Assembly: GCA_017499595.2 (NCBI GenBank)
Contig: CM038999.1
Coordinates: forward strand, 1 to 64,000
Direction of reading: 5' to 3'
Length of the DNA stretch: 64,000 nucleotides
Source of the DNA: Psilocybe cubensis
Taxonomy: Eukaryota
The notes under the pieces were generated by a model. The model was not told where the DNA came from. It ran no database searches and saw only the letters and a program-made list of their open reading frames with translations. The translations under genes were made by a program, and so were the position numbers. Below are positions 1 through 35,684 of the stretch, in pieces (the first letter of the stretch is position 1; every line of letters begins with the position of its first letter).

Positions 1-146
1 ACCCTAAACCCTAAACCCTAAACCCTAAACCCTAAACCCTAAACCCTAAACCCTAAACCCTAAACCCTAAACCCTAAACCCTAAACCCTAAACCCTAAAC
101 CCTAAACCCTAAACCCTAAACCCTAAACCCTAAACCCTAAACCCTA
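1..146. repeat. Terminal telomeric tract (CCCTAAA)n / (TTTAGGG)n; left chromosome end
   Basis: About 20 perfect CCCTAAA units from base 1, with the C-rich strand on +. Confidence 0.97.
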
Positions 147-707
147 ACCTAACCCCAACCCTAAGCTAACTAAGTCTAACCTTAGTAGGAAGTAAGGTAG
201 GCGTGTGAACTTCCGAACGGCATGTGATTGTGAAGGGCCGGATCTAATTTAGTACATGGGAAAAGTTACTTAGTACTTCTGGAAAAGTTCCTTAGTACCG
301 TGGAAACATTTTTGATGGACCGGATCATGAACTGTCCAATTAAGATTCACAACAATCAATCATTCTATTGTTTGATTGTTAGGTAAGGACCCAGGTAAGC
401 TATTTATACTCTAGACATGTGAATATTCCCATGTCGCGGTTACTCGGAGCCACGTAACCAGAGTAATCTATATCCATGTGATTCACATCACAGTCAATAA
501 CCCACGATGTCAAAGAACAAAAGTGTTGGATCCACTTTTGACAGGTTACCATGTGCCACATCGACCCGTGACACTCTGTTCATCAGAGACCTGTCTAACT
601 TGACAATAAACATTGACAGATTTGTGATAGTCGGTAAGATACATGACAGCTGCGCAGCATCACTTCACGCGCTGTCATCGGATGTCTAGAACATTCCTTC
701 TAAGAAT

Positions 708-772
708 AGCCACTGAAGAGTCTATAAAGACGAAAGGGCTGGTTGTTGGGATCCCCCAACAGCCCTCTGGCT
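708..772 (+). ncRNA. Type I hammerhead ribozyme in pLTR (intact)
   Basis: AGCCA-CUGAAGA-G-UCU(AUAA)AGA-C-GAAA-GGGCU...AGCCC-UC^-UGGCU. Core CUGANGA/GAAA/NUH and stems I-III all pair; predicted cut after C767. Confidence 0.9.
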
Positions 773-877
773 TCTTTCCATTTTAACTCCCAGTTTAAAC
801 TAGTCGCTCGCACCTCGCTTCGCTCGGTGCTCGCTCCCCCCTAAACCCAACGACTTTGCTATCACCCATCAGCCACT

Positions 878-3800
878 ATGTCATCCCAATATTCTGCTGC
901 TTTCTCTCGTGCCATGTCCCCCTCCCTGGACGCACTCACCCAGGCCGTCGTCAACAACACCGTCTTCGGCGTCAACGATGAAGCAGGCCGCCAAAACGCT
1001 CTCATCGACGAGCTGGCCACTGTGGTCATCAAGAAAATAGCTGAGTGCCGCTCCGTTGATCAAATAATAGACTGCGTCTTTTTTGACTATCGCGCTGCCC
1101 TTAGGGAGTTTCTCCTCAACCTCGCATCGTGGTGCGACAAGAGGGAAACAGTCAGGGCTAGCCTTGAGCGCCTTGAACTTGCCGTTAGCGCAGGGCAGCA
1201 CCCCCAATCGCCTTAAGGTGAAGGCTCCCGAGTTCCAACTCACGAAGGAATTCGCGGATGCCGGGTCAGCGGAGGCTCTTCGAGTCTCTACTACGTTCTC
1301 CACCGCTCGTGACGTCTCTTCCAAAAGGCGATTAACGACGGCGCCATTCAGGCGAAAAAGGACGAACTGGCCTTTTGGGAGGATAAATGCGCACTCGCTT
1401 CTTGCTATGAAGCTGCTGCGGTCATCGTTAAGACAACTTACGAAGACCGCAAGTCCAGCTATAAGCTCCCCGTTTTCTCTACAGACAACAAGGGAGTTCG
1501 TCGCATAGCAGAGTGGGTAACGTCGCCGCAAAAGAAAGCCGAGTGCAGTGCGCTGCAAACTATACTGCCGGCTATCTTTTCTCATATCAAACAAATTGTC
1601 AAATTGCGCCACCGCGCTTTGGCAATTAAGATTGAGAAAAAGCGGTCGACCGCGGCTACAGCCGATGTCGAGATGGCCGACGCGACCAAACCAGGTCCGT
1701 CGATTCAATCCCTTATTGATAAGGGCTTGAATGCACGTCTTAAGAAGCTCAACCTTGGATATGTGGGCAAGAAGGCAGGTTTTCGTAACCCTTCACCCAT
1801 AACTTTGGATACTAATTATTATTCTAATTACCCAGACTTCGTCTGGCCAGAGTTCGTCCAAGGCTCCTCAACCTCAGGCCAAGAAAACTGGCCCTTCGAA
1901 ACCCAAGTCGTCGTCGACGCCTTCGCAACGCAAGCCTCAAACCAAGGCTTCCAACAAGGTCGACAACAAGAAGAAAGGGAAGGGGAGAGCTCCCGTCAAG
2001 AACAACAATCCAAAGGGAAAGGGAAAGGCAAGAGCCTAAACACGCGGTCTAATGTAGTACCTTTTACGTCGGTAAGACCCGCTTTCCCCAACTCTATTCC
2101 TGACGATATACTCACCATGACTAAAACAGACGCAGTTTCATTTGTACACCTCAATACCCCAATTTCTTTCTTATTGGCTGGCCAGTATAGATCTAGTGTA
2201 CATTGTAGTCCTGGTGTTGTAGTTCCGGTTGATGTAGCAAACGACTTATCTCTCGGTTTAAATTATATGTTTTTCACACTGCCTTCTCAAAGTCTGATCA
2301 TGCAAGCATGGAATGATTTTCAACGAAGAATAAGATGGCGTATCTATTTTTTGTTTAAAGAAGGCATGAATAAACCTTTTGATCCAGATTATGGAGTAAG
2401 TTCTAAGAAAAAAGAAAAACCTCCTGTATTACCGCAATTTATGGAACTTGGCCTTTCAATGGGACGTCGGTACGTTATTAAAACGATCGCAAGTATCCCG
2501 GAAGAAGCCCTCAAGGAGATGCGAAAGCACGCGTTCTCTCCTAAAAGGGACAAGATCCAAAAGTTTCTTATCGATAACAACTATGTTATTACGATGACAG
2601 ATAAGAATCTTGGCCTCGCGGTGTCTGAACGCGACTGGATATTAAGGAATGAGCTCAATCTTCTTGAAGATGAACGTAATTACGAAGAGCTAGAATTCGA
2701 AGTTGCGCAAGAAGTAATGAAGAGCAAAATGATCCAGATGCAAACTCTTGCACGTACCGTCGAAGATGAACATCTGTTTCTATTTGAACTTGGGTTGTCT
2801 CGATTCTTTCTATCGAATGTACCGGAAGACGGATCATCGTTCAAGTATCCTCAATTTCATGGTATACCTAAAATCCACAAAAAACCTACTGGATTTAGGC
2901 CCATAATTCCGTGTCACTCTGTAGTATTTAATCCTGCAGCCAAGTTTGTATCAAAAGAGCTTAAGCCGATTATTAAATCGACTCCTTCAATCATTCACGG
3001 AACGAAGGATCTCTTTACGAGATTAAGCCAATTGCGTATAGACCCCCAAACGACAATGGTATTTTGTCACCGGGGATGTAGTTGCTTTCTATCCCAATAT
3101 TCCGTTGGACTTGTGCATCGAAATCGTTTGTAATATGTACGAGGAATGGTTACTCAACGCTTCGGAAGAAAACACTGCATTAGCCCATATTAATCCAAAT
3201 TCGTTAGAGAATAACTTGGTTAAATTGGGCATCTTTAAACGTGCTATCGAGATTGGCAATACGCAATTGATAACACAACATGGGTCTAGATATTTTAGAC
3301 AAAAAAAATGGCCTCGCAATGGGCGTCGCGGATTCTCCGGACCTTGCTAACCTCTTTGGAGCCCATTTTGAAATAAAGTCAAAAATCTTAAACCACCCAA
3401 ACGTGGCCTTCTATGGAAGGTACATCGACGATTGTTTCGCAATTGTTTACGCCGAGTCCGAAGCACTTGCACTTAATCTTATTAAAGAAACAATAAAGTT
3501 CGATGGTTGTGTTATCGAATGGGCTGTTTCCTCGTCGGGATGTCAATTTCTCGATGCTTTCATATTCAAGGAGTCTGGAAAACTTCATTGGAAGCCATTT
3601 GTCAAGACAGGAAACAACCGAGAACGAGTTCCATGGGTATCACATCATCCTTTTGGACGTCAAACGTGGCGTCTACATTGGAGAGTTATCCAGGTTAGCC
3701 GTGCTATGTAGTACCAAGGAAATCTACATCGGAGCAATTAGAGACCTTAACGCTCTCTATTTGATGCGCGGTTATCCCGAAAACCTAGTCATGTCTTGGT

Positions 3801-4417
3801 GTAAGAAGAATATACAAGAACGTTGGGAAAAGCGATTCGCTTTACGAGTCGCAGAGCACGACGAATCCATTCTTGTACTTAAAACCAGATTTGATCAGGT
3901 ATGGAATTGGTTTTCAGCTGCTGAACTTGGAAAGACTGTTACCGAGTACTGGTCGGCATGGTATGAACATGCCGAGAAAGGTCTGTATAGTGCAGACTCG
4001 TCCAGACCCCTTATCAAACCAGATCCAAATTACGTTCACGACCTCGATGATGTTCGCCCGGAGCTGTTCACACAGATCCTCGTGGACGGAGAAACTGAGT
4101 TCGTACCGGATTTGAGGAAGATAGGACTACTCGGAAGTCGTTGGATAGTATCGCGAAAGCGCAATACTAATCTTTTCGACCTTGCAAATGTGTGGAAGAA
4201 AACAGTCTTTCGTAAACTGGATGAAAACATCGCTGAAAAAGGTGGTGTTGTTCCCGAAACTCAAAACGTTAATGAAACTTATCATTCTGCTCTAGTTGAA
4301 GCTGCTGAACAGATAAGTATCGAAAGTGATAACGAGATAATACTTCATAGACGTTCAACCTCACAAGAGAGGGAACATCCAGAATTCGGCAGAATATCCA
4401 AATCTTACAACCGATGA
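878..4417 (+). pseudogene. RT polyprotein of unit 1, split by several small insertions (real decay or read errors)
   Basis: Near-identical to the intact 1176-aa copies but broken into ORFs 878-1216, 1604-3133, 3280-3711 and 3503-4417. Insertions fall mostly in homopolymers. Confidence 0.75.
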
Positions 4418-5128
4418 AAAGAATACTAGCGCGTAAGGCGTAAAGCATTAGAAAAAAAACCCTAACCGTAAGTATTCCTTGCTATAAAGTAACAAACATC
4501 TACTTACAAGCAACACTTTGGATTAAATAGCTAAACCTAAACCCTAAACCCTAAACCCTAAACCCTAACCTAACCCCAACCCTAAGCTAACTAAGTCTAA
4601 CCTTAGTAGGAAGTAAGGTAGGCGTGTGAACTTCCGAACGGCATGTGATTGTGAAGGGCCGGATCTAATTTAGTACATGGGAAAAGTTACTTAGTACTTC
4701 TGGAAAAGTTCCTTAGTACCGTGGAAACATTTTTGATGGACCGGATCATGAACTGTCCAATTAAGATTCACAACAATCAATCATTCTATTGTTTGATTGT
4801 TAGGTAAGGACCCAGGTAAGCTATTTATACTCTAGACATGTGAATATTCCCATGTCGCGGTTACTCGGAGCCACGTAACCAGAGTAATCTATATCCATGT
4901 GATTCACATCACAGTCAATAACCCACGATGTCAAAGAACAAAAGTGTTGGATCCACTTTTGACAGGTTACCATGTGCCACATCGACCCGTGACACTCTGT
5001 TCATCAGAGACCTGTCTAACTTGACAATAAACATTGACAGATTTGTGATAGTCGGTAAGATACATGACAGCTGCGCAGCATCACTTCACGCGCTGTCATC
5101 GGATGTCTAGAACATTCCTTCTAAGAAT

Positions 5129-5193
5129 AGCCACTGAAGAGTCTATAAAGACGAAAGGGCTGGTTGTTGGGATCCCCCAACAGCCCTCTGGCT
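5129..5193 (+). ncRNA. Hammerhead ribozyme (intact), 3' pLTR of unit 1
   Basis: Same motif as 708-772. Confidence 0.9.
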
Positions 5194-5275
5194 TCTTTCC
5201 ATTTTAACTCCCAGTTTAAACTAGTCGCTCGCACCTCGCTTCGCTCGGTGCTCGCTCCCCCCTAAACCCTAAACC

Positions 5276-5349
5276 CTACTTTCCATTTAACTCCCAGTTT
5301 AAACTAGTCGCTCGCACCTCGCTTCGCTCGGTGCTCGCTCCCCCCCTAA
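5276..5349 (+). mobile_element. 74-bp extremely 5'-truncated retroelement fragment
   Basis: Matches the pLTR terminal segment CTACTTTCCATTT...GCTCCCCCCCTAA of the unit-5 haplotype (23290 onward); telomeric repeats cap its left side. Confidence 0.85.
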
Positions 5350-5944
5350 GCTAACTAAGTCTAACCTTAGTAGGAAGTAAGGTAGGCGTGTGAACTTCCG
5401 AAAGGCATGTGATTGTGAAGGGCCGGATCTAATTTAGTACATGGGAAAAGTTACTTAGTACCTCGGGAAAAGTTCCTTAGTACCGTGGAAACATTTTTGA
5501 TGGACCGGATCATGAACTGTCCAATTAAGATTCACAACAATCAATCAATTGATTATTAGGTAAGGACCCAGGTAAGCTATTTATACTCTTGACATGAGAA
5601 TATTCCCATGTCACGGTTACTCGGAGCCACGTAACCAGAGTATTTTATATCCATGTGATTCACATCACAGTCAATAACCCACGATGTCAAAGAACAAAAG
5701 TGTTGGATCCACTTTTGACAGGTTACCATGTGCCACATCGACCCGTGACACTCTGTTCATCAGAGATCTGTCTAACTTGACAATAAACATTGACAGATTT
5801 GTGATAGTCGGTAAGATACATGACAGCTGCGCAGCATCACTTCACGCGCTGTCATCGGATGTTCCAGAACATTCCTTCTAAGAATAGCCACTGAAGAGTC
5901 TATAAAGACGAAAGGGCTGGCTGCTGATAACAATCAACAGCCCT

Positions 5945-6873
5945 CAAGTACTCGTCCTCTCCCAAACTCCTGCCGCTTGTGCCTTCCCAACTCATCCGGG
6001 AGCCCTTTCGTCACTGATCTTGCCCTTGACTCGGGGACGTTTCATCGACATGTTGGCTGCCTCACGGCAAGCGGGGCCCTTTTTCTTTCACTCGCTCACG
6101 CCTTCTATGTTGGGTTACGGAGGTCATACAAACTCGTTTTAGTCTAGCTGCGGGGTTATCCAGCTATGATGACTTTGTAATTCGAGGGCGCGCAGTTCTT
6201 CAATGGGTATGGACATCAGGTGAGAGTACACTGGGGGTTGTCAGGACCAGCTCTGCTGGATACGCTCCTGGCAAGTCGGTTGCAGCCGGCGACACTACCG
6301 AATTGCTGGGACGTCCTAAAGCTTGTGGGTACCGCCGACCGCTGGAAACAGCCTAGGCACCGGTGGCGACCGGGTATGGTAACAATCCCCAAGATTCAGC
6401 GAAAGCTGGAATGGATAATCAGCAGCGAATCCGTAACGGTCACGCCGACGGAAGCGTTCAACGACTAGGTGGTAGTGGGGTCTTCGGATCTTAAGATATA
6501 GTCTTGGGAGTGGGGAAACCCACATCTGGTATCTAAACCGCGCCTCGCTGCTTACGAGGACGGCCCGAAGTCCAGAACCGCTTAAAACGCGGGTGACCCG
6601 GCCTCCCCTTAGTAAAGGGAGTTAACACAAGGATGGACAAATAGTTCGTCGCCGGAAATGAACCTGTGGCTGTAATGGCTGATGTGGCGCCCCTTGGTAA
6701 AGGGCTTAAAGGGTATTAGCCTGCCATGTCCAATGGCATGAGAGTGTCCCTTGGTAAAGGACTTAATAGGCAATAGCCTGCTCTTTTGTCATGAGCGGTA
6801 TGTAGTGATCGTTTGCCTGTACGGTAGCGCCCATTGCTTGCACTGGTCCACGCCCGTAAAAAATCACGAGCCG
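5945..6873 (+). ncRNA. Group I self-splicing intron (IC1-like, 929 nt, no homing endonuclease ORF) inserted in the hammerhead cleavage triplet
   Basis: Exact insertion relative to empty pLTRs (CAGCCCT|CTGGC): the exon ends in U and the intron ends in G. P AATTGCTGGG 6301; Q AATCAGCAG 6417; R GTTCAACGACTA 6456; S AAGATATAGTC 6493; P3 CACTACC 6293 / GGTAGTG 6471; P9 GAAA-loop hairpin 6510-6523. IGS GGGGTTGT 6234-6241 pairs with exon ACAGCCCT, with U.G at the splice site. Confidence 0.92.
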
Positions 6874-6985
6874 CTGGCCTTCTTTCCATTTAACTCACAG
6901 TTTAAACAAGTCGCTCGCACCTCGCTTCGCTCGGTGCTCGCTCCCCCCCTAAACCCAACGACTTTGCTATTACCCAACAGCTACT

Positions 6986-9900
6986 ATGTCTTCCACTTAC
7001 TCTGCTGCCTTCTCTCGTGCCATGTCCCCCACCCTGGACGCACTCACCCAGGCTGTCGTCAACAACACAGTTTTTGGCGTCAACGACGAAGCTGGCCGCC
7101 ACAACGCCCTCATCGACGAGTTGGCCACTGTCGTCATCAAGAAAATAGCTGAGTGCCGCTCCATTGACCAGATTGTAGACTGCGTCTTTTTTGACTATCG
7201 TGCTGCCCTTAGGGAGTTTCTCCTCAACCTCGCATCGTGGTGCGATAAGAGGGAAACAGTCAAGGCTAGCCTCGAGCGCCTTGAACTTGCCGTTAGCGCA
7301 GGCAACACCCCCAATCGCCTTCGGGTGAAGGCTCCCGAGTTCCAACTTACGAAGGAATTCGCGGATGCCGGGTCAGCGGAAGCTCTTCGAGTTTCCTCTA
7401 CGTTCTCCACCGCTCGTGATGTCTTCCAAAAGGCAATCAACGACGGCGCCATTCAGGCGAAAAAGGACGAACTGGCCTTTTGGGATGATAAATGCGCACT
7501 CAATAACTGTTATGAAGCTGCTGCCCTCATCGTTAAGACAACTTACGATGATCGCAAATCCAGCTATAAGCTCCCCGTTTTCTCTACAGACAACAAGGGA
7601 GTTCGTCGAATAACAGATTGGGTAGTGTCACCGCAGAAGAAGGCTGAATGCAGCGCATTGCAAACCATTTTGCCAGCCATCTTCTCTCATATCAAACAGA
7701 TTGTCAACTTGCGCCACCGCGCTTTGGCAATCAAGATTGAGAAAAAGCGGTCGACTGCGGCAACAGCCGATGTCGAGATGGCCGATGCGACCAAACCAGG
7801 TCCATCGATTCAATCCCTTATTGATAAGGGCTTGAATGCACGTCTCAAGAAGCTCAACCTTGGATCTGTGGGCAAGAAGGCAAGTTCTCGTAACCCTTCA
7901 CCCATAATTCTGGATACTAATTACTATTCTAATTACCCAGACTTTGTCTGGCCAGAATTCGTCCAAGGCTCCTCAACCTCAGGCCAAGAAAGCTGGCCCT
8001 TCGAAATTCAAACCCTCGTCGACGCCTTCGCAGAAGAAGCCCCTAACCAAGGCTTCCAACAAGGTCGACAACAAGAAGAAAGGGAAGGGGAGAGCTCCCG
8101 TCAAGAACGATCCAAAGGGAAAGGGAAAGGCAAGAGCCTAGACGCGCGGTCTAATGTAGTACCTTTTACGTCGGTAAGACCCGCCTTCCCCAACTCTATT
8201 CCTGACGATATACTCACCATGACTAAAACAGACGCAGTTTCTTTTGTACACTTACATACGCCGATCTCATTCTTGTTGGCTGGCCAGTATCGTAGTAGTG
8301 TACACTGTAGTCCTGGTGTGGTGGTCCCTGTAGATATAGCAAATGATTTATCACTCGGACTCAATTATATGTTTTTTACTCTACCTTCTCAAAGTCTGAT
8401 CATGCAAGCATGGAATGATTTTCAACGAAGAATAAGATGGCGTATCTATTTTTTGTTTAAGGAAGGCATGAACAAACCTTTTGATCCAGATTACGGAGTA
8501 AGCTCAAAAAAGAAAGAGAAACCTCCAGTATTACCGCAATACATGGAACTTGGCCTTTCGATGGGACGTCGGTACGTGCAACGCACGATCGCAAGTATCC
8601 CGGAAGAAGCCCTTACGGAGATGCGAAAGCACGCGTTCTCTCCTAAAAGGGACAAGATCCGTAAGTTTCTTATCGATAACAACTATGTTATTACGATGAC
8701 AGATAAGAATCTTGGCCTCGCGGTGTCTGAACGCGACTGGATATTAAGGAATGAGCTCAATCTTCTTGAAGATGAACGTAACTATGAAGAGTTAGAATTC
8801 GAAGTTGCGCAAGAAGTAATGAAGAGCAAAATGATCCAGATGCAAACTCTTGCACGTACCGTCGAAGATGAACATCTGTTTCTATTTGAACTTGGGTTGT
8901 CTCGATTCTTTCTATCGAATGTACCGGAAGACGGATCATCGTTCAAGTATCCTCAATTTCATGGTATACCTAAAATCCACAAAAAACCTACTGGATTTAG
9001 GCCCATAATTCCGTGTCACTCTGTAGTATTTAATCCTGCAGCCAAGTTTGTATCAAAAGAGCTTAAGCCGATTATTAAATCGACTCCTTCAATCATTCAC
9101 GGAACGAAGGATCTCTTTACGAGATTAAGCCAATTGCGTATAGACCCCAAACGACAATGGTATTTTGTCACCGGGGATGTAGTTGCTTTCTATCCCAATA
9201 TTCCGTTGGACTTGTGCATCGAAATCGTTTGTAATATGTACGAGGAATGGTTACTCAACGCTTCGGAAGAAAACACTGCATTAGCCCATATTAATCCAAA
9301 TTCGTTAGAGAATAACTTGGTTAAATTGGGCATCTTTAAACGTGCTATCGAGATTGGCAATACGCAATTGATAACACAACATGGGTCTAGATATTTTAGA
9401 CAAAAAAATGGCCTCGCAATGGGCGTCGCGGATTCTCCGGACCTTGCTAACCTCTTTGGAGCCCATTTTGAAATAAAGTCAAAAATCTTAGACCACCCAA
9501 ACGTGGCCTTCTATGGAAGGTACATCGACGATTGTTTCGCAATTGTTTACGCCGAGTCCGAAGCACTTGCACTTAATCTTATTAAAGAAACAATAAAGTT
9601 CGATGGTTGTGTTATCGAATGGGCTGTTTCCTCGTCGGGATGTCAATTTCTCGATGCTTTCATATTCAAGGAGTCTGGAAAACTTCATTGGAAGCCATTT
9701 GTCAAGACAGGAAACAACCGAGAACGAGTTCCATGGGTATCACATCATCCTTTGGACGTCAAACGTGGCGTCTACATTGGAGAGTTATCCAGGTTAGCCG
9801 TGCTATGTAGTACCAAGGAAATCTACATCGGAGCAATTAGAGACCTTAACGCTCTCTATTTGATGCGCGGTTATCCCGAAAACCTAGTCATGTCTTGGTG

Positions 9901-10516
9901 TAAGAAGAATATACAAGAACGTTGGGAAAAGCGATTCGCTTTACGAGTCGCAGAGCACGACGAATCCATTCTTGTACTTAAAACCAGATTTGATCAGGTA
10001 TGGAATTGGTTTTCAGCTGCTGAACTTGGAAAAACTGTTACCGAGTACTGGTCGGCATGGTATGAACATGCCGAGAAAGGTTTGTATAGTGCAGACTCGT
10101 CCAGACCCCTTATCAAACCAGATCCAAATTACGTTCACGACCTCGATGATGTTCGCCCGGAGCTGTTCACACAGATCCTCGTGGACGGAGAAACTGAGTT
10201 CGTACCGGATTTGAGGAAGATAGGACTACTCGGAAGTCGTTGGATAGTATCGCGAAAACGCAATACTAATCTTTTCGACCTTGCAAATGTGTGGAAGAAA
10301 ACAGTCTTTCGTAAACTGGATGAAGACATCGCTGAAAAAGGTGGTGTTGTTCCCGAAACTCAAAACGTTAATGAAACTTATCATTCTGCTTTAGTTGAAG
10401 CTGCTGAACAGATAAGTATCGAAAGTGATAACGAGATAATACTTCATAGACGTTCAATCTCACAAGAGAGGGAACATCCAGAATTCGGCAGAATATCCAA
10501 ATCTTACAACCGATGA
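6986..10516 (+). CDS. Penelope-like RT polyprotein, 1176 aa; no GIY-YIG endonuclease recognisable
   Basis: RT motifs IPKIHK..FRPII, FVTGDVVAFYPNI, QKNGLAMG, GRYIDD, FLD; PLE-type thumb region (SHHP..VKRG..GELSR). Confidence 0.95.
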   Translation: MSSTYSAAFSRAMSPTLDALTQAVVNNTVFGVNDEAGRHNALIDELATVVIKKIAECRSIDQIVDCVFFDYRAALREFLLNLASWCDKRETVKASLERLELAVSAGNTPNRLRVKAPEFQLTKEFADAGSAEALRVSSTFSTARDVFQKAINDGAIQAKKDELAFWDDKCALNNCYEAAALIVKTTYDDRKSSYKLPVFSTDNKGVRRITDWVVSPQKKAECSALQTILPAIFSHIKQIVNLRHRALAIKIEKKRSTAATADVEMADATKPGPSIQSLIDKGLNARLKKLNLGSVGKKASSRNPSPIILDTNYYSNYPDFVWPEFVQGSSTSGQESWPFEIQTLVDAFAEEAPNQGFQQGRQQEEREGESSRQERSKGKGKGKSLDARSNVVPFTSVRPAFPNSIPDDILTMTKTDAVSFVHLHTPISFLLAGQYRSSVHCSPGVVVPVDIANDLSLGLNYMFFTLPSQSLIMQAWNDFQRRIRWRIYFLFKEGMNKPFDPDYGVSSKKKEKPPVLPQYMELGLSMGRRYVQRTIASIPEEALTEMRKHAFSPKRDKIRKFLIDNNYVITMTDKNLGLAVSERDWILRNELNLLEDERNYEELEFEVAQEVMKSKMIQMQTLARTVEDEHLFLFELGLSRFFLSNVPEDGSSFKYPQFHGIPKIHKKPTGFRPIIPCHSVVFNPAAKFVSKELKPIIKSTPSIIHGTKDLFTRLSQLRIDPKRQWYFVTGDVVAFYPNIPLDLCIEIVCNMYEEWLLNASEENTALAHINPNSLENNLVKLGIFKRAIEIGNTQLITQHGSRYFRQKNGLAMGVADSPDLANLFGAHFEIKSKILDHPNVAFYGRYIDDCFAIVYAESEALALNLIKETIKFDGCVIEWAVSSSGCQFLDAFIFKESGKLHWKPFVKTGNNRERVPWVSHHPLDVKRGVYIGELSRLAVLCSTKEIYIGAIRDLNALYLMRGYPENLVMSWCKKNIQERWEKRFALRVAEHDESILVLKTRFDQVWNWFSAAELGKTVTEYWSAWYEHAEKGLYSADSSRPLIKPDPNYVHDLDDVRPELFTQILVDGETEFVPDLRKIGLLGSRWIVSRKRNTNLFDLANVWKKTVFRKLDEDIAEKGGVVPETQNVNETYHSALVEAAEQISIESDNEIILHRRSISQEREHPEFGRISKSYNR
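7880..7940 (+). other. Putative 61-nt GC-AG spliceosomal intron inside the RT ORF (present in all six units)
   Basis: AAG|GCAAGT donor, TACTAAT/TTCTAAT branch candidates, CCCAG| acceptor. Removal opens a Lys-rich frame ending at TAG 8141. Confidence 0.65.
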
Positions 10517-11225
10517 AAAGAATACTAGCGCGTAAGGCGTAAAGCATTAGAAAAAAACCCTAACCGTAAGTATTCCTTGCTACAAAGTAACAAACATCTA
10601 CTTACAAGCAACACATTGGATTAAATAGCTAAACCTAAACCTAAACCCTAAACCCTAAACCCTAAGCCCTAACCTAACCCCAACCCTAAGCTAACTAAGT
10701 CTAACCTTAGTAGGAAGTAAGGTAGGCGTGTGAACTTCCGAAAGGCATGTGATTGTGAAGGGCCGGATCTAATTTAGTACATGGGAAAAGTTACTTAGTA
10801 CCTCGGGAAAAGTTCCTTAGTACCGTGGAAACATTTTTGATGGACCGGATCATGAACTGTCCAATTAAGATTCACAACAATCAATCAATTGATTATTAGG
10901 TAAGGACCCAGGTAAGCTATTTATACTCTTGACATGAGAATATTCCCATGTCACGGTTACTCGGAGCCACGTAACCAGAGTATTTTATATCCATGTGATT
11001 CACATCACAGTCAATAACCCACGATGTCAAAGAACAAAAGTGTTGGATCCACTTTTGACAGGTTACCATGTGCCACATCGACCCGTGACACTCTGTTCAT
11101 CAGAGATCTGTCTAACTTGACAATAAACATTGACAGATTTGTGATAGTCGGTAAGATACATGACAGCTGCGCAGCATCACTTCACGCGCTGTCATCGGAT
11201 GTTCCAGAACATTCCTTCTAAGAAT

Positions 11226-11289
11226 AGCCACTGAAGAGTCTATAAAGACGAAAGGGCTGGCTGCTGATAACAATCAACAGCCCTCTGGC
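11226..11289 (+). ncRNA. Hammerhead ribozyme (intact, haplotype B), 3' pLTR of unit 2
   Basis: Core and proximal stems identical to 708-772; this is the empty site corresponding to intron 5945-6873. Confidence 0.88.
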
Positions 11290-11963
11290 CTTCTTTCCAT
11301 TTAACTCACAGTTTAAACAAGTCGCTCGCACCTCGCTTCGCTCGGTGCTCGCTCCCCCCCTAAACCTAAACCTAAACCCTAAACCCTAAACCCTAAACCC
11401 TAACCTAACCCCAACCCTAAGCTAACTAAGTCTAACCTTAGTAGGAAGTAAGGTAGGCGTGTGAACTTCCGAACGGCATGTGATTGTGAAGGGCCGGATC
11501 TAATTTAGTACATGGGAAAAGTTACTTAGTACTTCGGGAAAAGTTCCTTAGTACCGTGGAAACATTTTTGATGGACCGGATCATGAACTGTCCAATTAAG
11601 ATTCACAACAATCAATCATTCTATTGTTTGATTGTTAGGTAAGGACCCAGGTAAGCTATTTATACTCTAGACATGTGAATATTCCCATGTCGCGGTTACT
11701 CGGAGCCACGTAACCAGAGTAATCTATATCCATGTGATTCACATCACAGTCAATAACCCACGATGTCAAAGAACAAAAGTGTTGGATCCACTTTTGACAG
11801 GTTACCATGTGCCACATCGACCCGTGACACTCTGTTCATCAGAGACCTGTCTAACTTGACAATAAACATTGACAGATTTGTGATAGTCGGTAAGATACAT
11901 GACAGCTGCGCAGCATCACTTCACGCGCTGTCATCGGATGTCTAGAACATTCCTTCTAAGAAT

Positions 11964-17198: not shown

Positions 17199-18127
17199 CA
17201 AGTACTCGTCCTCTCCCAAACTCCTGCCGCTTGTGCCTTCCCAACTCATCCGGGAGCCCTTTCGTCACTGATCTTGCCCTTGACTCGGGGACGTTTCATC
17301 GACATGTTGGCTGCCTCACGGCAAGCGGGGCCCTTTTTCTTTCACTCGCTCACGCCTTCTATGTTGGGTTACGGAGGTCATACAAACTCGTTTTAGTCTA
17401 GCTGCGGGGATATCCAGCTATGATGACTTTGTAATTCGAGGGCGCGCAGTTCTTCAATGGGTATGGACATCAGGTGAGAGTACACTGGGGGTTGTCAGGA
17501 CCAGCTCTGCTGGATACGCTCCTGGCAAGTCGGTTGCAGCCGGCGACACTACCGAATTGCTGGGACGTCCTAAAGCTTGTGGGTACCGCCGACCGCTGGA
17601 AACAGCCTAGGCACCGGTGGCGACCGGGTATGGTAACAATCCCCAAGATTCAGCGAAAGCTGGAATGGATAATCAGCAGCGAATCCGTAACGGTCACGCC
17701 GACGGAAGCGTTCAACGACTAGGTGGTAGTGGGGTCTTCGGATCTTAAGATATAGTCTTGGGAGTGGGGAAACCCACATCTGGTATCTAAACCGCGCCTC
17801 GCTGCTTACGAGGACGGCCCGAAGTCCAGAACCGCTTAAAACGCGGGTGACCCGGCCTCCCCTTAGTAAAGGGAGTTAACACAAGGATGGACAAATAGTT
17901 CGTCGCCGGAAATGAACCTGTGGCTGTAATGGCTGATGTGGCGCCCCTTGGTAAAGGGCTTAAAGGGTATTAGCCTGCCATGTCCAATGGCATGAGAGTG
18001 TCCCTTGGTAAAGGACTTAATAGGCAATAGCCTGCTCTTTTGTCATGAGCGGTATGTAGTGATCGTTTGCCTGTACGGTAGCGCCCATTGCTTGCACTGG
18101 TCCACGCCCGTAAAAAATCACGAGCCG
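17199..18127 (+). ncRNA. Group I intron copy 2 (929 nt) in the hammerhead cleavage triplet
   Basis: Near-identical to 5945-6873 with the same junctions. Confidence 0.92.
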
Positions 18128-18239
18128 CTGGCCTTCTTTCCATTTAACTCACAGTTTAAACAAGTCGCTCGCACCTCGCTTCGCTCGGTGCTCGCTCCCC
18201 CCCTAAACCCAACGACTTTGCTATTACCCAACAGCTACT

Positions 18240-22543: not shown

Positions 22544-23225
22544 CTTCTTTCCATTTAACTCACAGTTTAAACAAGTCGCTCGCACCTCGCTTCGCTCGGT
22601 GCTCGCTCCCCCCCTAAACCCTAAACCCTAAACCCTAAACCCTAAACCCTAAACCCTAAACCCTAACCTAACCCCAACCCTAAGCTAACTAAGTCTAACC
22701 TTAGTAGGAAGTAAGGTAGGCGTGTGAACTTCCGAACGGCATGTGATTGTGAAGGGCCGGATCTAATTTAGTACATGGGAAAAGTTACTTAGTACTTCGG
22801 GAAAAGTTCCTTAGTACCGTGGAAACATTTTTGATGGACCGGATCATGAACTGTCCAATTAAGATTCACAACAATCAATCATTCTATTGTTTGATTGTTA
22901 GGTAAGGACCCAGGTAAGTTATTTATACTCTAGACATGTGAATATTCCCATGTCGCGGTTACTCGGAGCCACGTAACCAGAGTAATCTATATCCATGTGA
23001 TTCACATCACAGTCAATAACCCACGATGTCAAAGAACAAAAGTGTTGGATCCACTTTTGACAGGTTACCATGTGCCACATCGACCCGTGACACTCTGTTC
23101 ATCAGAGACCTGTCTAACTTGACAATAAACATTGACAGATTTGTGATAGTCGGTAAGATACATGACAGCTGCGCAGCATCACTTCACGCGCTGTCATCGG
23201 ATGTCTAGAACATTCCTTCTAAGAA

Positions 23226-23292
23226 TAGCCACTGAAGAGTCTATAAAGACGAAAGGGCTGGTTGTTGGGATCCCCCAACAGCCCTCTGGCTA
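23226..23292 (+). ncRNA. Hammerhead ribozyme (intact; 6-bp stem I TAGCCA/TGGCTA), 5' pLTR of unit 5
   Basis: Same core. Confidence 0.88.
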
Positions 23293-23396
23293 CTTTCCAT
23301 TTAACTCCCAGTTTAAACTAGTCGCTCGCACCTCGCTTCGCTCGGTGCTCGCTCCCCCCCTAAACCCAACGACTTTGCTATTATCCATCAGCCACT

Positions 23397-26300
23397 ATGT
23401 CATCTCAATACTCTGCTGCTTTCTCTCGTGCCATGTCCCCCACCCTGGACGCACTCACCCAGGCCGTCGTCAACAACACCGTTTTCGGCGTCAACGATGA
23501 AGCAGGCCGCCATAACGCTCTGATCGACGAGCTGGCCACTGTGGTCATCAAAAAAATAGCTGAGTGCCGCTCCGTTGACCAAGTCATAGACTGCGTCTTT
23601 TTTGACTATCGTGCTGCCCTTAGGGAGTTTCTCCTCAACCTCGCATCGTGGTGCGATAAGAGGGAAACAGTCAAGGCTAGCCTCGAGCGCCTTGAATCTG
23701 CCGTTAGCGCAGGCAACACGCCCAATCGCCTTAAGGTGAAGGCACCCGAGTTCCAACTTACGAAGGAATTCGCGGATGCCGGGTCAGCGGAGGCTCTTCG
23801 AGTCTCCACTACGTTCTCTACCGCTCGTGACGCCTTCCAAAAGGCAATTAACGACGGCGCCATTCAGGCGAAAAAGGACGAGCTGACTTTTTGGGATGAT
23901 AAATGCGCACTCAACTCTTGCTACGAAGCTGCTGCCCTCATCGTTAAGGCAACTTACGATGATCGCAAATCCAGCTACAAGCTCCCTGTTTTCTCTACAG
24001 ATAACAAGGGAGTTCGACGTATAGCAGAGTGGGTAGTGTCTCCGCAAAAGAAAGCCGAATGCAGTGCGCTGCAAACCATACTGCCGGCGATCTTTTCTCA
24101 CATCAAACAAATTGTCAACATGCGCCACCGCGCTTTGGCAATTAAGATTGAGAAAAAGCGGACGACTGCGGCAACAGCCGATGTCGAGATGGCCGACGCG
24201 ACCAAACCAGGTCCGTCGATTCAATCCCTTATTGATAAGGGCTTGAATGCACGTCTCAAGAAGCTCAACCTTGGATCTGTGGGCAAGAAGGCAAGTTTTC
24301 GTAACCCTTCACCCATAATTCTGGATACTAATTACTACTCTAATTACCCAGACTTTGTCTGGCCAGAATTCGTCCAAGGCTCCTCAACCTCAGGCCAAGA
24401 AAGCTGGCCCTTCGAAACCCAAGTCGTCGTCGACGCCTTCGCAACGCAAGCCTCAAACCAAGGCTTCCAACAAGGTCGACAACAAGAAGAAAGGGAAGGG
24501 GAGAGCTCCCGTCAAGAACGATCCAAAGGGAAAGGGAAAGGCAAGAGCCTAGATGCGCGGTCTAATGTAGTACCTTTTACGTCGGTGAGACCCGCCTTCC
24601 CCAACTCTATTCCTGACGATATACTCACCATGACTAAAACAGACGCAGTTTCTTTCGTACACTTACATACTCCAATATCATTCTTGTTGGCTGGCCAGTA
24701 TCGTAGTAGTGTACATTGTAGTCCTGGTGTTTCTGTCCCTGTTGATGTAGCAAACGATCTCTCTCTCGGACTTAATTATATGTTTTTCACTCTGCCTTCT
24801 AAAAGTCTGATCATGCAAGCATGGAATGATTTCCAACGAAGAATAAGATGGCGTATCTATTTTTTGTTTAAGGAAGGCATGAATAAACCTTTTGATCCAG
24901 ATTATGGAGTAAGCTCAAAAAAGAAAGAGAAACCTCCTGTATTACCGCAATATATGGAACTTGGCCTTTCGATGGGACGTCGGTACGTGCAACGCACGAT
25001 CGCAAGTATCCCGGAAGAAGCCCTTACGGAGATGCGAAAGCACGCGTTCTCTCCTAAAAGGGACAAGATCCGTAAGTTTCTTATCGATAACAACTATGTT
25101 ATTACGATGACAGATAAGAATCTTGGCCTCGCGGTGTCTGAACGCGACTGGATATTAAGGAATGAACTCAATCTTCTTGAAGATGAACGTAATTACGAAG
25201 AGTTAGAATTCGAAGTTGCGCAAGAAGTTATGAAGAGCAAAATGATTCAGATGCAAACGCTCGCACGTACTGTCGAAGATGAACATCTGTTTCTATTTGA
25301 ACTTGGGTTGTCTCGATTCTTTCTATCGAATGTACCGGAAGACGGATCATCGTTCAAGTATCCTCAATTTCATGGTATACCTAAAATCCACAAGAAACCT
25401 ACTGGATTTAGGCCCATAATTCCGTGTCACTCTGTAGTATTTAATCCTGCAGCCAAGTTTGTATCAAAAGAGCTTAAGCCGATTATTAAATCGACTCCTT
25501 CAATCATACACGGAACGAAGGATCTCTTTACGAGATTAAGCCAATTGCGTATAGACTCCAAAAGACAATGGTATTTTGTCACTGGAGATGTAGTTGCTTT
25601 CTATCCCAATATTCCGTTGGACTTGTGCATCGAAATCGTTTGTAGTATGTACGAGGAATGGTTACTCAACGCTTCGGAAGAAAACACTGCATTAGCCCAT
25701 ATTAATCCAAATTCGTTAGAGAATAACTTGGTTAAATTGGGCATCTTTAAACGTGCTATCGAGATTGGCAATACGCAATTGATAACACAACATGGGTCTA
25801 GATATTTTAGACAAAAAAATGGCCTCGCAATGGGCGTCGCGGATTCTCCGGACCTTGCTAACCTCTTTGGAGCCCATTTTGAAATAAAGTCAAAAATCTT
25901 AGACCACCCAAACGTGGCCTTCTATGGAAGGTACATCGACGATTGTTTCGCAATTGTTTACGCCGAGTCCGAAGCACTTGCACTTAATCTTATTAAAGAA
26001 ACAATAAAGTTCGATGGTTGTGTTATCGAATGGGCTGTTTCCTCGTCGGGATGTCAATTTCTCGATGCTTTCATATTCAAGGAGTCTGGAAAACTTCATT
26101 GGAAGCCTTTTGTCAAGACAGGAAACAACCGAGAACGAGTTCCATGGGTATCACATCATCCTTTGGACGTCAAACGTGGCGTCTACATTGGAGAGTTATC
26201 CAGGTTAGCCGTGCTATGTAGTACCAAGGAAATCTACATCGGAGCAATTAGAGACCTTAACGCTCTCTATTTGATGCGCGGTTATCCCGAAAACCTAGTC

Positions 26301-26927
26301 ATATCTTGGTGTAAGAAGAATATACAAGAACGTTGGGAAAAGCGATTCGCTTTACGAGTCGCAGAGCACGACGAATCCATTCTTGTACTTAAAACCAGAT
26401 TTGATCAGGTATGGAATTGGTTTTCAGCTGCTGAACTTGGAAAAACTGTTACCGAGTACTGGTCGGCATGGTATGAACATGCCGAGAAAGGTTTGTATAG
26501 TGCAGACTCGTCCAGACCCCTTATCAAACCAGATCCAAATTACGTTCACGACCTCGATGATGTTCGCCCGGAGCTGTTCACACAGATCCTCGTGGACGGA
26601 GAAACTGAGTTCGTACCGGATTTGAGGAAGATAGGACTACTCGGAAGTCGTTGGATAGTATCGCGAAAACGCAATACTAATCTTTTCGACCTTGCAAATG
26701 TGTGGAAGAAAACAGTCTTTCGTAAACTGGATGAAGACATCGCTGAAAAAGGTGGTGTTGTTCCCGAAACTCAAAACGTTAATGAAACTTATCATTCTGC
26801 TTTAGTTGAAGCTGCTGAGCAGATAAGTATCGAAAGTGATAACGAGATAATACTTCATAGACGTTCAATCTCACAAGAGAGGGAACATCCAGAATTTGGC
26901 AGAATATCCAAATCTTACAACCGATGA
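23397..26927 (+). CDS. Penelope-like RT polyprotein, 1176 aa
   Basis: Intact ORF with the same RT motifs. Confidence 0.95.
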   Translation: MSSQYSAAFSRAMSPTLDALTQAVVNNTVFGVNDEAGRHNALIDELATVVIKKIAECRSVDQVIDCVFFDYRAALREFLLNLASWCDKRETVKASLERLESAVSAGNTPNRLKVKAPEFQLTKEFADAGSAEALRVSTTFSTARDAFQKAINDGAIQAKKDELTFWDDKCALNSCYEAAALIVKATYDDRKSSYKLPVFSTDNKGVRRIAEWVVSPQKKAECSALQTILPAIFSHIKQIVNMRHRALAIKIEKKRTTAATADVEMADATKPGPSIQSLIDKGLNARLKKLNLGSVGKKASFRNPSPIILDTNYYSNYPDFVWPEFVQGSSTSGQESWPFETQVVVDAFATQASNQGFQQGRQQEEREGESSRQERSKGKGKGKSLDARSNVVPFTSVRPAFPNSIPDDILTMTKTDAVSFVHLHTPISFLLAGQYRSSVHCSPGVSVPVDVANDLSLGLNYMFFTLPSKSLIMQAWNDFQRRIRWRIYFLFKEGMNKPFDPDYGVSSKKKEKPPVLPQYMELGLSMGRRYVQRTIASIPEEALTEMRKHAFSPKRDKIRKFLIDNNYVITMTDKNLGLAVSERDWILRNELNLLEDERNYEELEFEVAQEVMKSKMIQMQTLARTVEDEHLFLFELGLSRFFLSNVPEDGSSFKYPQFHGIPKIHKKPTGFRPIIPCHSVVFNPAAKFVSKELKPIIKSTPSIIHGTKDLFTRLSQLRIDSKRQWYFVTGDVVAFYPNIPLDLCIEIVCSMYEEWLLNASEENTALAHINPNSLENNLVKLGIFKRAIEIGNTQLITQHGSRYFRQKNGLAMGVADSPDLANLFGAHFEIKSKILDHPNVAFYGRYIDDCFAIVYAESEALALNLIKETIKFDGCVIEWAVSSSGCQFLDAFIFKESGKLHWKPFVKTGNNRERVPWVSHHPLDVKRGVYIGELSRLAVLCSTKEIYIGAIRDLNALYLMRGYPENLVISWCKKNIQERWEKRFALRVAEHDESILVLKTRFDQVWNWFSAAELGKTVTEYWSAWYEHAEKGLYSADSSRPLIKPDPNYVHDLDDVRPELFTQILVDGETEFVPDLRKIGLLGSRWIVSRKRNTNLFDLANVWKKTVFRKLDEDIAEKGGVVPETQNVNETYHSALVEAAEQISIESDNEIILHRRSISQEREHPEFGRISKSYNR

Positions 26928-27642
26928 AAAGAATACTAGCGCTTAAGGCGTAAAGCATTAGAAAAAAACCCTAACCGTAAGTATTCCTTGCTATAAAGTA
27001 ACAAACATCTACTTACAAGCAACACATTGGATTGAATAGCTAAACCTAAACCTAAACCCTAAACCCTAAACCCTAAACCCTAACCTAACCCCAACCCTAA
27101 GCTAACTAAGTCTAACCTTAGTAGGAAGTAAGGTAGGCGTGTGAACTTCCGAACGGCATGTGATTGTGAAGGGCCGGATCTAATTTAGTACATGGGAAAA
27201 GTTACTTAGTACTTCGGGAAAAGTTCCTTAGTACCGTGGAAACATTTTTGATGGACCGGATCATGAACTGTCCAATTAAGATTCACAACAATCAATCATT
27301 CTATTGTTTGATTGTTAGGTAAGGACCCAGGTAAGTTATTTATACTCTAGACATGTGAATATTCCCATGTCGCGGTTACTCGGAGCCACGTAACCAGAGT
27401 AATCTATATCCATGTGATTCACATCACAGTCAATAACCCACGATGTCAAAGAACAAAAATGTTGGATCCACTTTTGACAGGTTACCATGTGCCACATCGA
27501 CCCGTGACACTCTGTTCATCAGAGACCTGTCTAACTTGACAATAAACATTGACAGATTTGTGATAGTCGGTAAGATACATGACAGCTGCGCAGCATCACT
27601 TCACGCGCTGTCATCGGATGTCTAGAACATTCCTTCTAAGAA

Positions 27643-27709
27643 TAGCCACTGAAGAGTCTATAAAGACGAAAGGGCTGGTTGTTGGGATCCCCCAACAGCC
27701 CTCTGGCTA
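27643..27709 (+). ncRNA. Hammerhead ribozyme (intact), 3' pLTR of unit 5
   Basis: Same motif. Confidence 0.88.
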
Positions 27710-28453
27710 CTTTCCATTTAACTCCCAGTTTAAACTAGTCGCTCGCACCTCGCTTCGCTCGGTGCTCGCTCCCCCCCTAAACCCTAAACCCTAACCCTAA
27801 ACCTAAACCCTAAACCCTAAACCCTAAACCCTAACCTAACCCCAACCCTAAGCTAACTAAGTCTAACCTTAGTAGGAAGTAAGGTAGGCGTGTGAACTTC
27901 CGAACGGCATGTGATTGTGAAGGGCCGGATCTAATTTAGTACATGGGAAAAGTTACTTAGTACTTCGGGAAAAGTTCCTTAGTACCGTGGAAACATTTTT
28001 GATGGACCGGATCATGAACTGTCCAATTAAGATTCACAACAATCAATCATTCTATTGTTTGATTGTTAGGTAAGGACCCAGGTAAGCTATTTATACTCTA
28101 GACATGTGAATATTCCCATGTCGCGGTTACTCGGAGCCACGTAACCAGAGTAATCTATATCCATGTGATTCACATCACAGTCAATAACCCACGATGTCAA
28201 AGAACAAAAGTGTTGGATCCACTTTTGACAGGTTACCATGTGCCACATCGACCCGTGACACTCTGTTCATCAGAGACCTGTCTAACTTGACAATAAACAT
28301 TGACAGATTTGTGATAGTCGGTAAGATACATGACAGCTGCGCAGCATCACTTCACGCGCTGTCATCGGATGTCTAGAACATTCCTTCTAAGAATAGCCAC
28401 TGAAGAGTCTATAAAGACGAAAGGGCTGGTTGTTGGGATCCCCCAACAGCCCT

Positions 28454-29382
28454 CAAGTACTCGTCCTCTCCCAAACTCCTGCCGCTTGTGCCTTCCCAAC
28501 TCATCCGGGAGCCCTTTCGTCACTGATCTTGCCCTTGACTCGGGGACGTTTCATCGACATGTTGGCTGCCTCACGGCAAGCGGGGCCCTTTTTCTTTCAC
28601 TCGCTCACGCCTTCTATGTTGGGTTACGGAGGTCATACAAACTCGTTTTAGTCTAGCTGCGGGGTTATCCAGCTATGATGACTTTGTAATTCGAGGGCGC
28701 GCAGTTCTTCAATGGGTATGGACATCAGGTGAGAGTACACTGGGGGTTGTCAGGACCAGCTCTGCTGGATACGCTCCTGGCAAGTCGGTTGCAGCCGGCG
28801 ACACTACCGAATTGCTGGGACGTCCTAAAGCTTGTGGGTACCGCCGACCGCTGGAAACAGCCTAGGCACCGGTGGCGACCGGGTATGGTAACAATCCCCA
28901 AGATTCAGCGAAAGCTGGAATGGATAATCAGCAGCGAATCCGTAACGGTCACGCCGACGGAAGCGTTCAACGACTAGGTGGTAGTGGGGTCTTCGGATCT
29001 TAAGATATAGTCTTGGGAGTGGGGAAACCCACATCTGGTATCTAAACCGCGCCTCGCTGCTTACGAGGACGGCCCGAAGTCCAGAACCGCTTAAAACGCG
29101 GGTGACCCGGCCTCCCCTTAGTAAAGGGAGTTAACACAAGGATGGACAAATAGTTCGTCGCCGGAAATGAACCTGTGGCTGTAATGGCTGATGTGGCGCC
29201 CCTTGGTAAAGGGCTTAAAGGGTATTAGCCTGCCATGTCCAATGGCATGAGAGTGTCCCTTGGTAAAGGACTTAATAGGCAATAGCCTGCTCTTTTGTCA
29301 TGAGCGGTATGTAGTGATCGTTTGCCTGTACGGTAGCGCCCATTGCTTGCACTGGTCCACGCCCGTAAAAAATCACGAGCCG
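28454..29382 (+). ncRNA. Group I intron copy 3 (929 nt) in the hammerhead cleavage triplet
   Basis: Same sequence and junctions, here in a haplotype-A pLTR. Confidence 0.92.
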
Positions 29383-29496
29383 CTGGCCTTCTTTCTATTT
29401 CAAACTCACAGTTTAAACTAGTCGCTCGCACCTCGCTTCGCTCGGTGCTCGCTCCCCCCCTAAACCCAACGACTTTGCTATCACCCATCAGTTACC

Positions 29497-33874: not shown

Positions 33875-33970
33875 CCCTAAACCCTAAACCCTAAACCCTA
33901 AACCCTAAACCCTAAACCCTAAACCCTAAACCCTAACCCTAAACCCTAAACCCTAAACCCTAAACCCTAA
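33875..33970. repeat. Interstitial telomeric tract (former chromosome end)
   Basis: About 13 CCCTAAA units. Confidence 0.95.
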
Positions 33971-34303
33971 CAAAAGTGTTGGATCCACTTTTGACAGGTT
34001 ACCATGTGCCACATCGACCCGTGACACTCTGTTCATCAGAGATCTGTCTAACTTGACAATAAACATTGACAGATTTGTGATAGTCGGTAAGATACATGAC
34101 AGCTGCGCAGCATCACTTCACGCGCTGTCATCGGATGTTCCAGAACATTCCTTCTAAGAATAGCCACTGAAGAGTCTATAAAGACGAAAGGGCTGGCTGC
34201 TGATAACAATCAACAGCCCTCTGGCCTTCTTTCCATTTAACTCACAGTTTAAACAAGTCGCTCGCACCTCGCTTCGCTCGGTGCTCGCTCCCCCCCTAAA
34301 CCC
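33969..34303 (+). mobile_element. 5'-truncated unit (partial pLTR with hammerhead at 34162-34225)
   Basis: Starts mid-pLTR at AACAAAAGTGTTGG, capped by telomeric repeats. Confidence 0.9.
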
Positions 34304-35594: not shown

Positions 35595-35684
35595 CTAAAC
35601 CCTAAACCCTAAACCCTAGACCCTAAACCCTAAACCCTAAAACCCTAAAACCCTAAACCCTAAACCCTAAACCCTAAACCCTAA
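35586..35684. repeat. Basal (ancestral) telomeric tract with variant units
   Basis: CCCTAAA units with CCCTAGA and CCCTAAAA variants; non-array sequence follows. Confidence 0.95.

Follow-up and report, generated by a model that had tools for sequence, protein, structure and literature searches.

A retroelement array at the chromosome end

The window analyzed here, the first 64,000 nt of a Psilocybe cubensis contig (CM038999.1), begins at a chromosome end and continues into retroelements arranged head to tail down to ~35684 (Table 1). Their ORFs lie on the + strand and run inward from the chromosome end, and six full-length elements are present within 148–33884. Short CCCTAAA-type tracts lie between them; these reverse-complement telomeric repeats separate the copies and 5′-truncate them, and the tracts themselves are very short or absent. 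The telomere unit of the window is the 7-mer CCCTAAA, both at 1–147 and in the inter-element tracts. Metagenome relatives of the elements carry either CCCTAA or CCCTAAA tracts, with the terminal motif of the element matching each time.

The most distal element (A1) is composed of a telomere-like lead-in, a U region (~620 nt, with a hammerhead motif at its end), an R module, an ORF body, a near-constant internal tract and a second U-R. Its 5′ and 3′ U-R copies are identical at 701 of 701 positions (3′ copy, 4569–5269). The 5′ hammerhead consists of CUGAAGAG at 713, GAAA, an 11-bp helix III and U-C, with a predicted cut after C767, and is followed by the 5′ R (768–848), which opens with the helix I strand UGGCU, contains a GCACC...GGUGC hairpin and ends in CCCCCCTAAACCC. 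The ORF of A1 is broken, and the element has seven private indels, four of them in runs of at least four identical bases. Either a defective master was mobilised in trans, or the consensus contains errors at this chromosome end. The older element B1, from which A1 is separated by the fragment described below, has a U that is 5′-truncated by about 11–15 nt. Further into the array, at 11363–11403, the R end of one element abuts the internal-tract copy that lies at the previous element's 5′ end. The junction lacks regular telomerase-type repeats and thereby implies element-on-element priming.

Intact copies contain a single ORF of 1176–1177 aa. That of B1 (6986–10516, 1176 aa) is intact and retrieved 188 relatives at E ≤ 1e-3, the best of which were P. 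cubensis proteins named 'reverse transcriptase domain-containing protein' (97–100% identity), followed by many agaric and metagenome proteins. Precomputed Pfam PF00078 matches are present on several of these relatives. A Pfam scan of the 1176-aa ORF itself returned 0 families at E ≤ 0.01, reverse transcriptase (RT) included, and no match to a GIY-YIG endonuclease domain, for which a weak match could be missed. Viral contigs searched with the RT alignment yielded no relative. By host, architecture and literature, the array elements are assigned to the Coprina-type endonuclease-less Penelope-like elements. The Coprina clade of endonuclease-deficient Penelope-like elements was reportedly described by Gladyshev and Arkhipova in 2007. 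Traits given for this clade are the terminal location, the orientation, one ORF, direct repeats at the termini and a hammerhead that adjoins a terminal CCCTAA stretch (PMC8557442, PMC4209133, PMC13159263). The array likewise has inward ORFs at a chromosome end, a head-to-tail arrangement, short reverse-complement telomeric repeats and no endonuclease domain among the matches found. Some copies are 5′-truncated, the terminal repeats are direct, and beside the terminal CCCTAA lies a type I hammerhead whose helix III is long.

Table 1 Coordinates of the features discussed, in window positions
Feature	Position	Strand	Details
Terminal telomere tract, (ACCCTAA)21	1–147	+	C-rich strand on +; chromosome end
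Element A1, most distal, Coprina-type	148–5269	+	U-R, body with broken ORF, internal telomere-like tract (4531–4568), U-R
Hammerhead in 3′ U of A1	5128–5193	+	AGCCA 5129–5133, CUGAAGAG 5134–5141, predicted cut after C5188, UGGCU 5189–5193
R module of A1, cut site to CCCCCCTAAACCC	5189–5269	+	With GCACC...GGUGC hairpin
Unambiguous telomeric bases TAAACC between A1 and fragment	5270–5275	+	Six bases
Solo-R mini-addition (the finding)	5276–5349	+	74/74 identical to +4 to +77 of R, element 22667–27790
Element B1, next after fragment, older	5344–11366	+	Hammerhead core, 929-nt insert, R, ORF, internal telomere-like tract, U-R
929-nt insert with group I intron core	5946–6874	+	At scissile position of B1 5′ U; Rfam match 6148–6525, 73 bits
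Further 929-nt insert copies	17200–18128 and 28455–29383		
Source haplotype, 5′ copy	23226–23363	+	Hammerhead (CUGAAGAG at 23232, predicted cut after 23286), R 23287–23363
Source haplotype, 3′ copy	27643–27780	+	Hammerhead (CUGAAGAG at 27649, predicted cut after 27703), R 27704–27780
5′-truncated copy, start inside U	33969–34303	+	Start 252 nt upstream of cut; microhomology AA
5′-truncated copy, start in ORF region	34336–35595	+	Start equivalent to 4008 of A1; microhomology CCCT

Terminal repeats of the full-length elements

Comparison of the two U copies within each full-length element gave 0 differences in five of six and one difference in the sixth, and R behaved in the same way; between lineages, U differs at up to 30 positions. 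The tract just upstream of each 5′ U copies the internal tract of its own element, private variants included. The within-element identity and the copied tract with its private variants define the terminal repeat as tel-U-R with LTR-like behavior, and suggest that each insertion rebuilds the 5′ tel-U-R repeat from its 3′ counterpart.

In four metagenome contigs close to one unit in length (L001, L002, L007 and L030; 4.5–4.7 kb), the start and end sequences overlap. Collapsed LTR-like repeats or tandem units fit these contigs, and circular molecules would look alike. A rolling-circle, circular-RNA template for the LTR-like repeats was also considered, as it would explain both the identical repeats and the four contigs. 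It was rejected: such a template predicts the 929-nt insert in the 3′ repeat, from which it is absent, and collapsed repeats explain the contigs equally.

Hammerhead motifs and the R module

Fourteen hammerhead cores were found in the window, 11 of which are followed by R and CCCTAA and three by a 929-nt insert. The core is complete, with CUGAAGAG, GAAA, helix III, U-C before the cut and a 5-bp helix I (AGCCA/UGGCU) that is open. The predicted cut, which we take to be CUC^UGG, was assigned by standard hammerhead numbering. Rfam models scored the motif below their gathering scores (RAGATH-1-hammerhead, 29.1 bits versus 56.3; Hammerhead_3, 19.5 versus 48.5). Hammerheads of fungal Penelope-like elements are described as variant forms (PMC4209133). 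A minimum free energy fold of hammerhead plus R recovered helix III and the R hairpin and not the three-way junction, a result that bears neither way.

To sample relatives, 80 metagenomic loci encoding relatives of the ORF were collected. A MAFFT alignment of the 17 distinct hammerheads misaligned their 3′ side, and a rule-based scan was therefore used instead of a covariance model. In the window and 18 of the 80 loci, the scan identified 32 hammerheads, 17 of them distinct; in its relaxed form the cut positions were set by motif. The layout of a hammerhead, 47–88 nt of R with a hairpin and CCCTAA is kept in the window and in the relatives, the R lengths coming from those tabulated cut sites at which R and its CCCTAA were delimited. 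Among the 17 distinct hammerheads, paired substitutions gave 12, 5 and 14 pair types in helices I, II and III, respectively, counts that lean towards structure, coming from a rule-based scan that required pairing. Given this wide recurrence of the layout, and paired changes in each of the three helices, we take the ribozyme motif to be real and conserved.

Group I intron-like inserts at the predicted cut

The 929-nt inserts each give a full-length Rfam group I intron match (73, 73 and 70.9 bits versus a gathering score of 50). Three of the six full-length elements carry one in their 5′ U-R, exactly at the scissile position after the hammerhead core; the 3′ U-R of the same elements is free of insert. 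The three inserts differ from one another at 0–1 positions. Two of their hosts differ at 155 of 3,683 body positions and at 28 U positions (about 4%), and the third host is a near-twin (10 differences) of an insert-free element. Insert-free (A) and insert-bearing (B) elements follow one another in strict alternation (A, B, A, B, A, B), and the first two B elements differ at 2 of 3,683 body positions.

The boundaries can be parsed as CCCU|CAAGUAC...GAGCCG|CUGGCC, one of two equivalent parses, with a U before the 5′ boundary and a terminal G as in group I introns. GGGGUU at 6152–6157 could pair with AGCCCU, a pairing that, like the boundary rule, was judged by eye only. Among distant metagenomic relatives, locus L070 has two group I hits above the gathering score after its hammerhead (7469–7787 and 8344–8657), and group I-like cores also follow the hammerheads of L073 (2067–2326, 32.7 bits) and L064 (957–1321, 31.6 bits), the offsets from the cut differing among the three loci. 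Judged by titles, the papers listed in a literature search on group I introns together with Penelope-like ribozymes did not deal with such an insert. An origin by template jumping, in which the RNA of an excised group I intron is captured at ends made by the hammerhead, predicts an extra G on the left and no extra C on the right; this origin was rejected, as the observed junction, CCCTC|AAGTAC...GAGCCGC|TGGCC, does not match. The insert may undergo splicing that restores the hammerhead or may have another role in the leader.

An R-only fragment between two elements

Between A1 and B1 lies a 74-bp fragment that reads CTACTTTCC...GCTCGCTCCCCCCCTAA. An earlier note on this DNA had placed its beginning 3 nt after the predicted hammerhead cut, and the alignment agrees: every base matches +4 to +77 of R in the element at 22667–27790, where the match is present in both copies of the repeat (23290–23363 and 27707–27780). 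The sequence of this source at the cut is CAGCCCTC^TGGCTACTTTCC. The note had described the matching haplotype as CUC^UGG and the span as reaching from near the cut to CCCTAA, and its description held in all particulars that were checked. The R of the fragment differs from that of both neighbors (the element at 148–5269 has CTT for CTA, T4 for T3 and C6 for C7). Being unlike either neighbor, it points to a separate template. The identity of the fragment to the source R is far beyond chance; its nearness to the cut is not clearly so.

At the left junction, 6–9 telomeric bases adjoin the R end of A1, comprising the six unambiguous bases and an ambiguous CTA (5276–5278). The TAAACC may have been either added by telomerase or carried on the RNA tail of A1. 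The CTA fits the telomere register CCCTA as well as the element, so the R-derived part starts between +4 and +7. The scissile bond itself is thus not the start, which lies at +4 (3 nt are lacking) or, should the CTA belong to the telomere, at +7. Re-extension of the distal end through CTA microhomology, as had been proposed, is supported, and the other truncated junctions of the window rely on telomere-like microhomology of 2–4 nt as well. At the right junction, CCCTAA of the fragment (5344–5349) overlaps the 5′ CCCTAAG of B1, giving a 6-nt microhomology and no telomere tract.

The organization of the elements is ordinary for Coprina, and the 74-bp fragment is the shortest class of 5′-truncated copy, composed of R only. 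With good confidence, we regard it as an independent, RT-made R-only addition whose source was an element other than either neighbor. The reading advanced in the earlier note is accordingly supported in one part, that of a separate and very short addition ending at the CCCTAA priming motif; the other part, run-off on a cleaved RNA, is a plausible proposal.

Start sites of truncated copies

A catalog of truncated copies was compiled over the window and the 80 loci. Its ten members comprise four that start within R, two within U (window position 33969 and L038 7147) and four within the ORF, among them window position 34336 and copies in L049, L050 and L080. Besides the 74-bp fragment, the R-only pieces are 12 nt in L004 (4432–4443; start at +65 of 77), 50 nt in L014 (2731–2780; start at +15 of 65) and 28 nt in L022 (4523–4550; start at +24 of 52), from metagenome contigs that may be chimeric. 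All three lie between telomeric repeats and the next element, and their haplotype is unlike that of the adjacent full R. Their starts indicate that the class is not anchored at the cut. None of the ten copies starts at +1, and one of the ten, the fragment at 5276–5349, starts within 7 nt of the cut, in line with the earlier description of a single event.

Under uniform truncation over the whole element, an end within 7 nt of the cut has P ~0.1% per event and about 0.4% for the three truncations of the window. Copies confined to R make up four of the ten although R occupies ~1.5% of the element length (binomial P = 1e-5 under uniform truncation, in a sample that is small, mixed in lineage and biased to short pieces, as short contigs favor them). 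This excess of R-confined pieces indicates that truncation was not uniform. Both figures weigh against terminal erosion or breakage, by which a longer copy of the 22667–27790 haplotype on B1 would have receded and then been healed at the first telomere-like microhomology. Erosion would accommodate the other truncated copies that start in U and in the ORF with 2–4 nt of microhomology, and the short or absent inter-element telomere tracts suggest additions onto critically short ends; given the two probabilities, we consider it quite unlikely for this fragment.

An early abortive event unrelated to the hammerhead would place the start anywhere in R. In this reading, RT would often dissociate within a few tens of nucleotides of the CCCUAA priming site, and the present fragment would simply be the longest of the pieces recovered. 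The 12-, 28- and 50-nt pieces in L004, L022 and L014 are of the kind expected, the four starts are spread over R, and at least one of four would fall this near the cut by chance with P = 0.32. For this fragment alone, given a start in R, a stop within 7 nt of the cut has a probability of ~9% (P ~0.09). Moreover, none of the four R-only fragments extends past the cut: there is no short overshoot, and the next-longest copy starts 252 nt upstream, a pattern that is weak evidence at n = 4. Taken with both sets of observations, an abortive origin seems somewhat unlikely.

Proposed origin of the fragment and the cause of the stop

The reading that we prefer, tentatively, is that the stop records run-off on a hammerhead-cleaved template. 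We infer the sequence of steps, the priming by RT, the reason for the stop and the cutting of the RNA in vivo. At the time of the event, the chromosome end would have been the 5′ end of B1, with a G-strand ending in ...GTTAGCTTAGGG-3′. The RT of a Coprina-type Penelope-like element would have primed on this end by pairing its TTAGGG with the CCCUAA of a template RNA carrying the R module of the 22667–27790 haplotype, copied R and halted at the hammerhead boundary. The halt would have occurred because the template ended there, as expected of a hammerhead-processed RNA. Such an RNA could have been the 3′ cleavage product of ~80 nt; alternatively, a full-length RNA could have been primed within its 5′ R, at CCCUAAACCC. 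Loss of about 3 nt would then have preceded extension of the new end, ...GGAAAGTAG-3′, through TAG/CUA pairing by telomerase or on the telomeric RNA tail of the incoming element at 148–5269. The element-on-element joining without a telomerase tract at 11363–11403 indicates that re-capping may have been by the RNA of the next element rather than by telomerase. The narrower proposition, that the fragment is the cDNA of the ~80-nt 3′ self-cleavage product or was copied from the 5′ R of a full-length RNA after its cleavage, is doubtful.

Several observations make a cleaved template possible: the conserved hammerhead–R–CCCTAA layout, the excess of R-only pieces and the ~9% nearness to the cut. A further one is biochemical, as the hammerhead of a Serpula lacrymans Penelope-like element is reported to self-cleave well in vitro as a monomer (PMC4209133; Cervera & De la Pena 2014). 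On the other side stand the single event, the start range and the other R-only starts. A start at +4 to +7 rather than +1 means that run-off requires trimming of at least 3 nt, and no truncated copy in the catalog supplies the +1 end. Nor does any of the six full-length window copies begin at the cut; all six have U upstream of the 5′ R, from which it follows that RT does not usually finish there. Data on an animal Penelope-like element also count against it: RNA sequencing reads are reported neither to begin nor to end at the hammerhead site, and cleavage to be dispensable in vitro (PMC11167929, 2024).

A stall of RT on an uncut, folded hammerhead fits the start range equally well. Here the three-way junction, through helix I (+1 to +5), would block RT and the cDNA end would seed the telomere; the predicted stop is +5 to +7, the R-derived start at +4 to +7 coincides with the 3′ edge of helix I, and no trimming is needed. 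The hammerhead fold has been described as a 3′-terminal structure that exposes telomeric repeats (PMC6431247), and unprocessed RNA is given as the main substrate in the animal Penelope-like element (PMC11167929). A 5-bp helix I is nonetheless a weak obstacle, and RT as a rule passes through the 3′ hammerhead, as all full-length copies show, so that a stall appears unlikely as the cause. The earlier suggestion that the fragment would be a genomic footprint of cleavage in vivo goes further than one event with a start range of +4 to +7, which the edge of helix I fits too, allows.

Two other sources of an end near the cut are each highly improbable. Run-off could have taken place at a transcription-start 5′ end near +4, as at an LTR-like U3/R boundary and with no ribozyme involved. 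The tel-U-R repeats are LTR-like and identical within an element, and the transcription start of Penelope and Chlamys is placed in the pseudo-LTR (PMC8557442); such a start would have to coincide with the hammerhead cut to within a few nucleotides. An assembly artefact in a highly repetitive chromosome end is the second. The private indels of A1, four of the seven in runs of identical bases, are compatible with lower consensus quality, against which stand the clean copy of one haplotype and the orderly microhomology junctions, of a type that recurs at other places in the array and also on independent metagenome contigs. For sampled words of 5100–5500, the best public DNA runs gave 0.59 and a metatranscriptome run 0.35, values that bear neither way.

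Relation to other retroelement systems

The 3′ ends of Athena and Terminon elements of bdelloid rotifers are described as having a hammerhead just upstream of a short reverse-complement telomeric stretch, which is proposed to pair with G-rich overhangs (PMC6431247; Arkhipova et al. 2017). Whereas the hammerhead lies directly by the telomeric stretch in these elements, 47–88 nt with a conserved hairpin intervene here. With this spacing between cut and CCCTAA, cleavage would free from the element body an RNA of ~80 nt that is competent for priming. The Athena and Terminon literature consulted contained no mention of a detached priming RNA of this kind, and in the wider Penelope-like-element literature consulted, additions made up of R alone, and how they relate to the cut, were not found described.

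HDV-like ribozymes are reported to define the 5′ ends of R2 and L1Tc (Eickbush et al. 2013, PMC3774820; PMC4035085). The idea shared with these systems is that a genomic 5′ junction records the ribozyme cut of the template RNA. In R2, this reportedly holds across full-length insertions and cleavage has been shown biochemically; here there is one fragment with an offset of 3–6 nt, and, in contrast to R2, no full-length copy has its start at the cut.

In retroviruses, minus-strand strong-stop DNA is a short cDNA extending from the primer as far as the 5′ end of an RNA with a terminal repeat R. The elements of the array resemble this in carrying R at either end, and the LTR-like repeats of any one element are identical. 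The retroviral primer is a tRNA and here it would be the chromosome end, with strand transfer a putative step. RNase H is not known from Penelope-like elements. The 'dead on arrival' 5′-truncated copies of non-LTR elements are incomplete reverse transcripts fixed in the genome. In de novo telomere addition, a non-telomeric 3′ end is healed through 1–4 nt that match the telomerase template; telomerase is the extending enzyme in that process, whereas another retroelement RNA may serve here, as the junction at 11363–11403 illustrates.

The fragment bears on whether, and to what end, the hammerheads of Penelope-like elements cut in living cells. Were run-off on a cleaved template correct, it would be the first genomic trace of such cutting in vivo. 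By extension, Coprina replication would regularly yield R-only 'strong-stop' cDNAs as by-products, and full-length copies would be made when RT bridges the cut, or jumps from R and so rebuilds the LTR-like tel-U-R repeat. A single fragment defines the test and does not settle it. R-only mini-additions are a recurrent class that is easily counted across fungal chromosome ends, and if the 5′ ends of telomeric retroelements pile up at the scissile bond, long-read assemblies alone could give the answer.

Other sequences in the window

Proximal to the array, a subtelomeric ORF on the − strand (60117–61487) has NPHP3_N and NACHT NTPase domain matches, which are typical of fungal NLR-like genes. Tandem repeats occur at 49251–49320 (unit of 21 nt, 3.3 copies) and at 50191–50362, where a 10/41-nt, GGAAGTGCAG-type repeat is present in about 16 copies.
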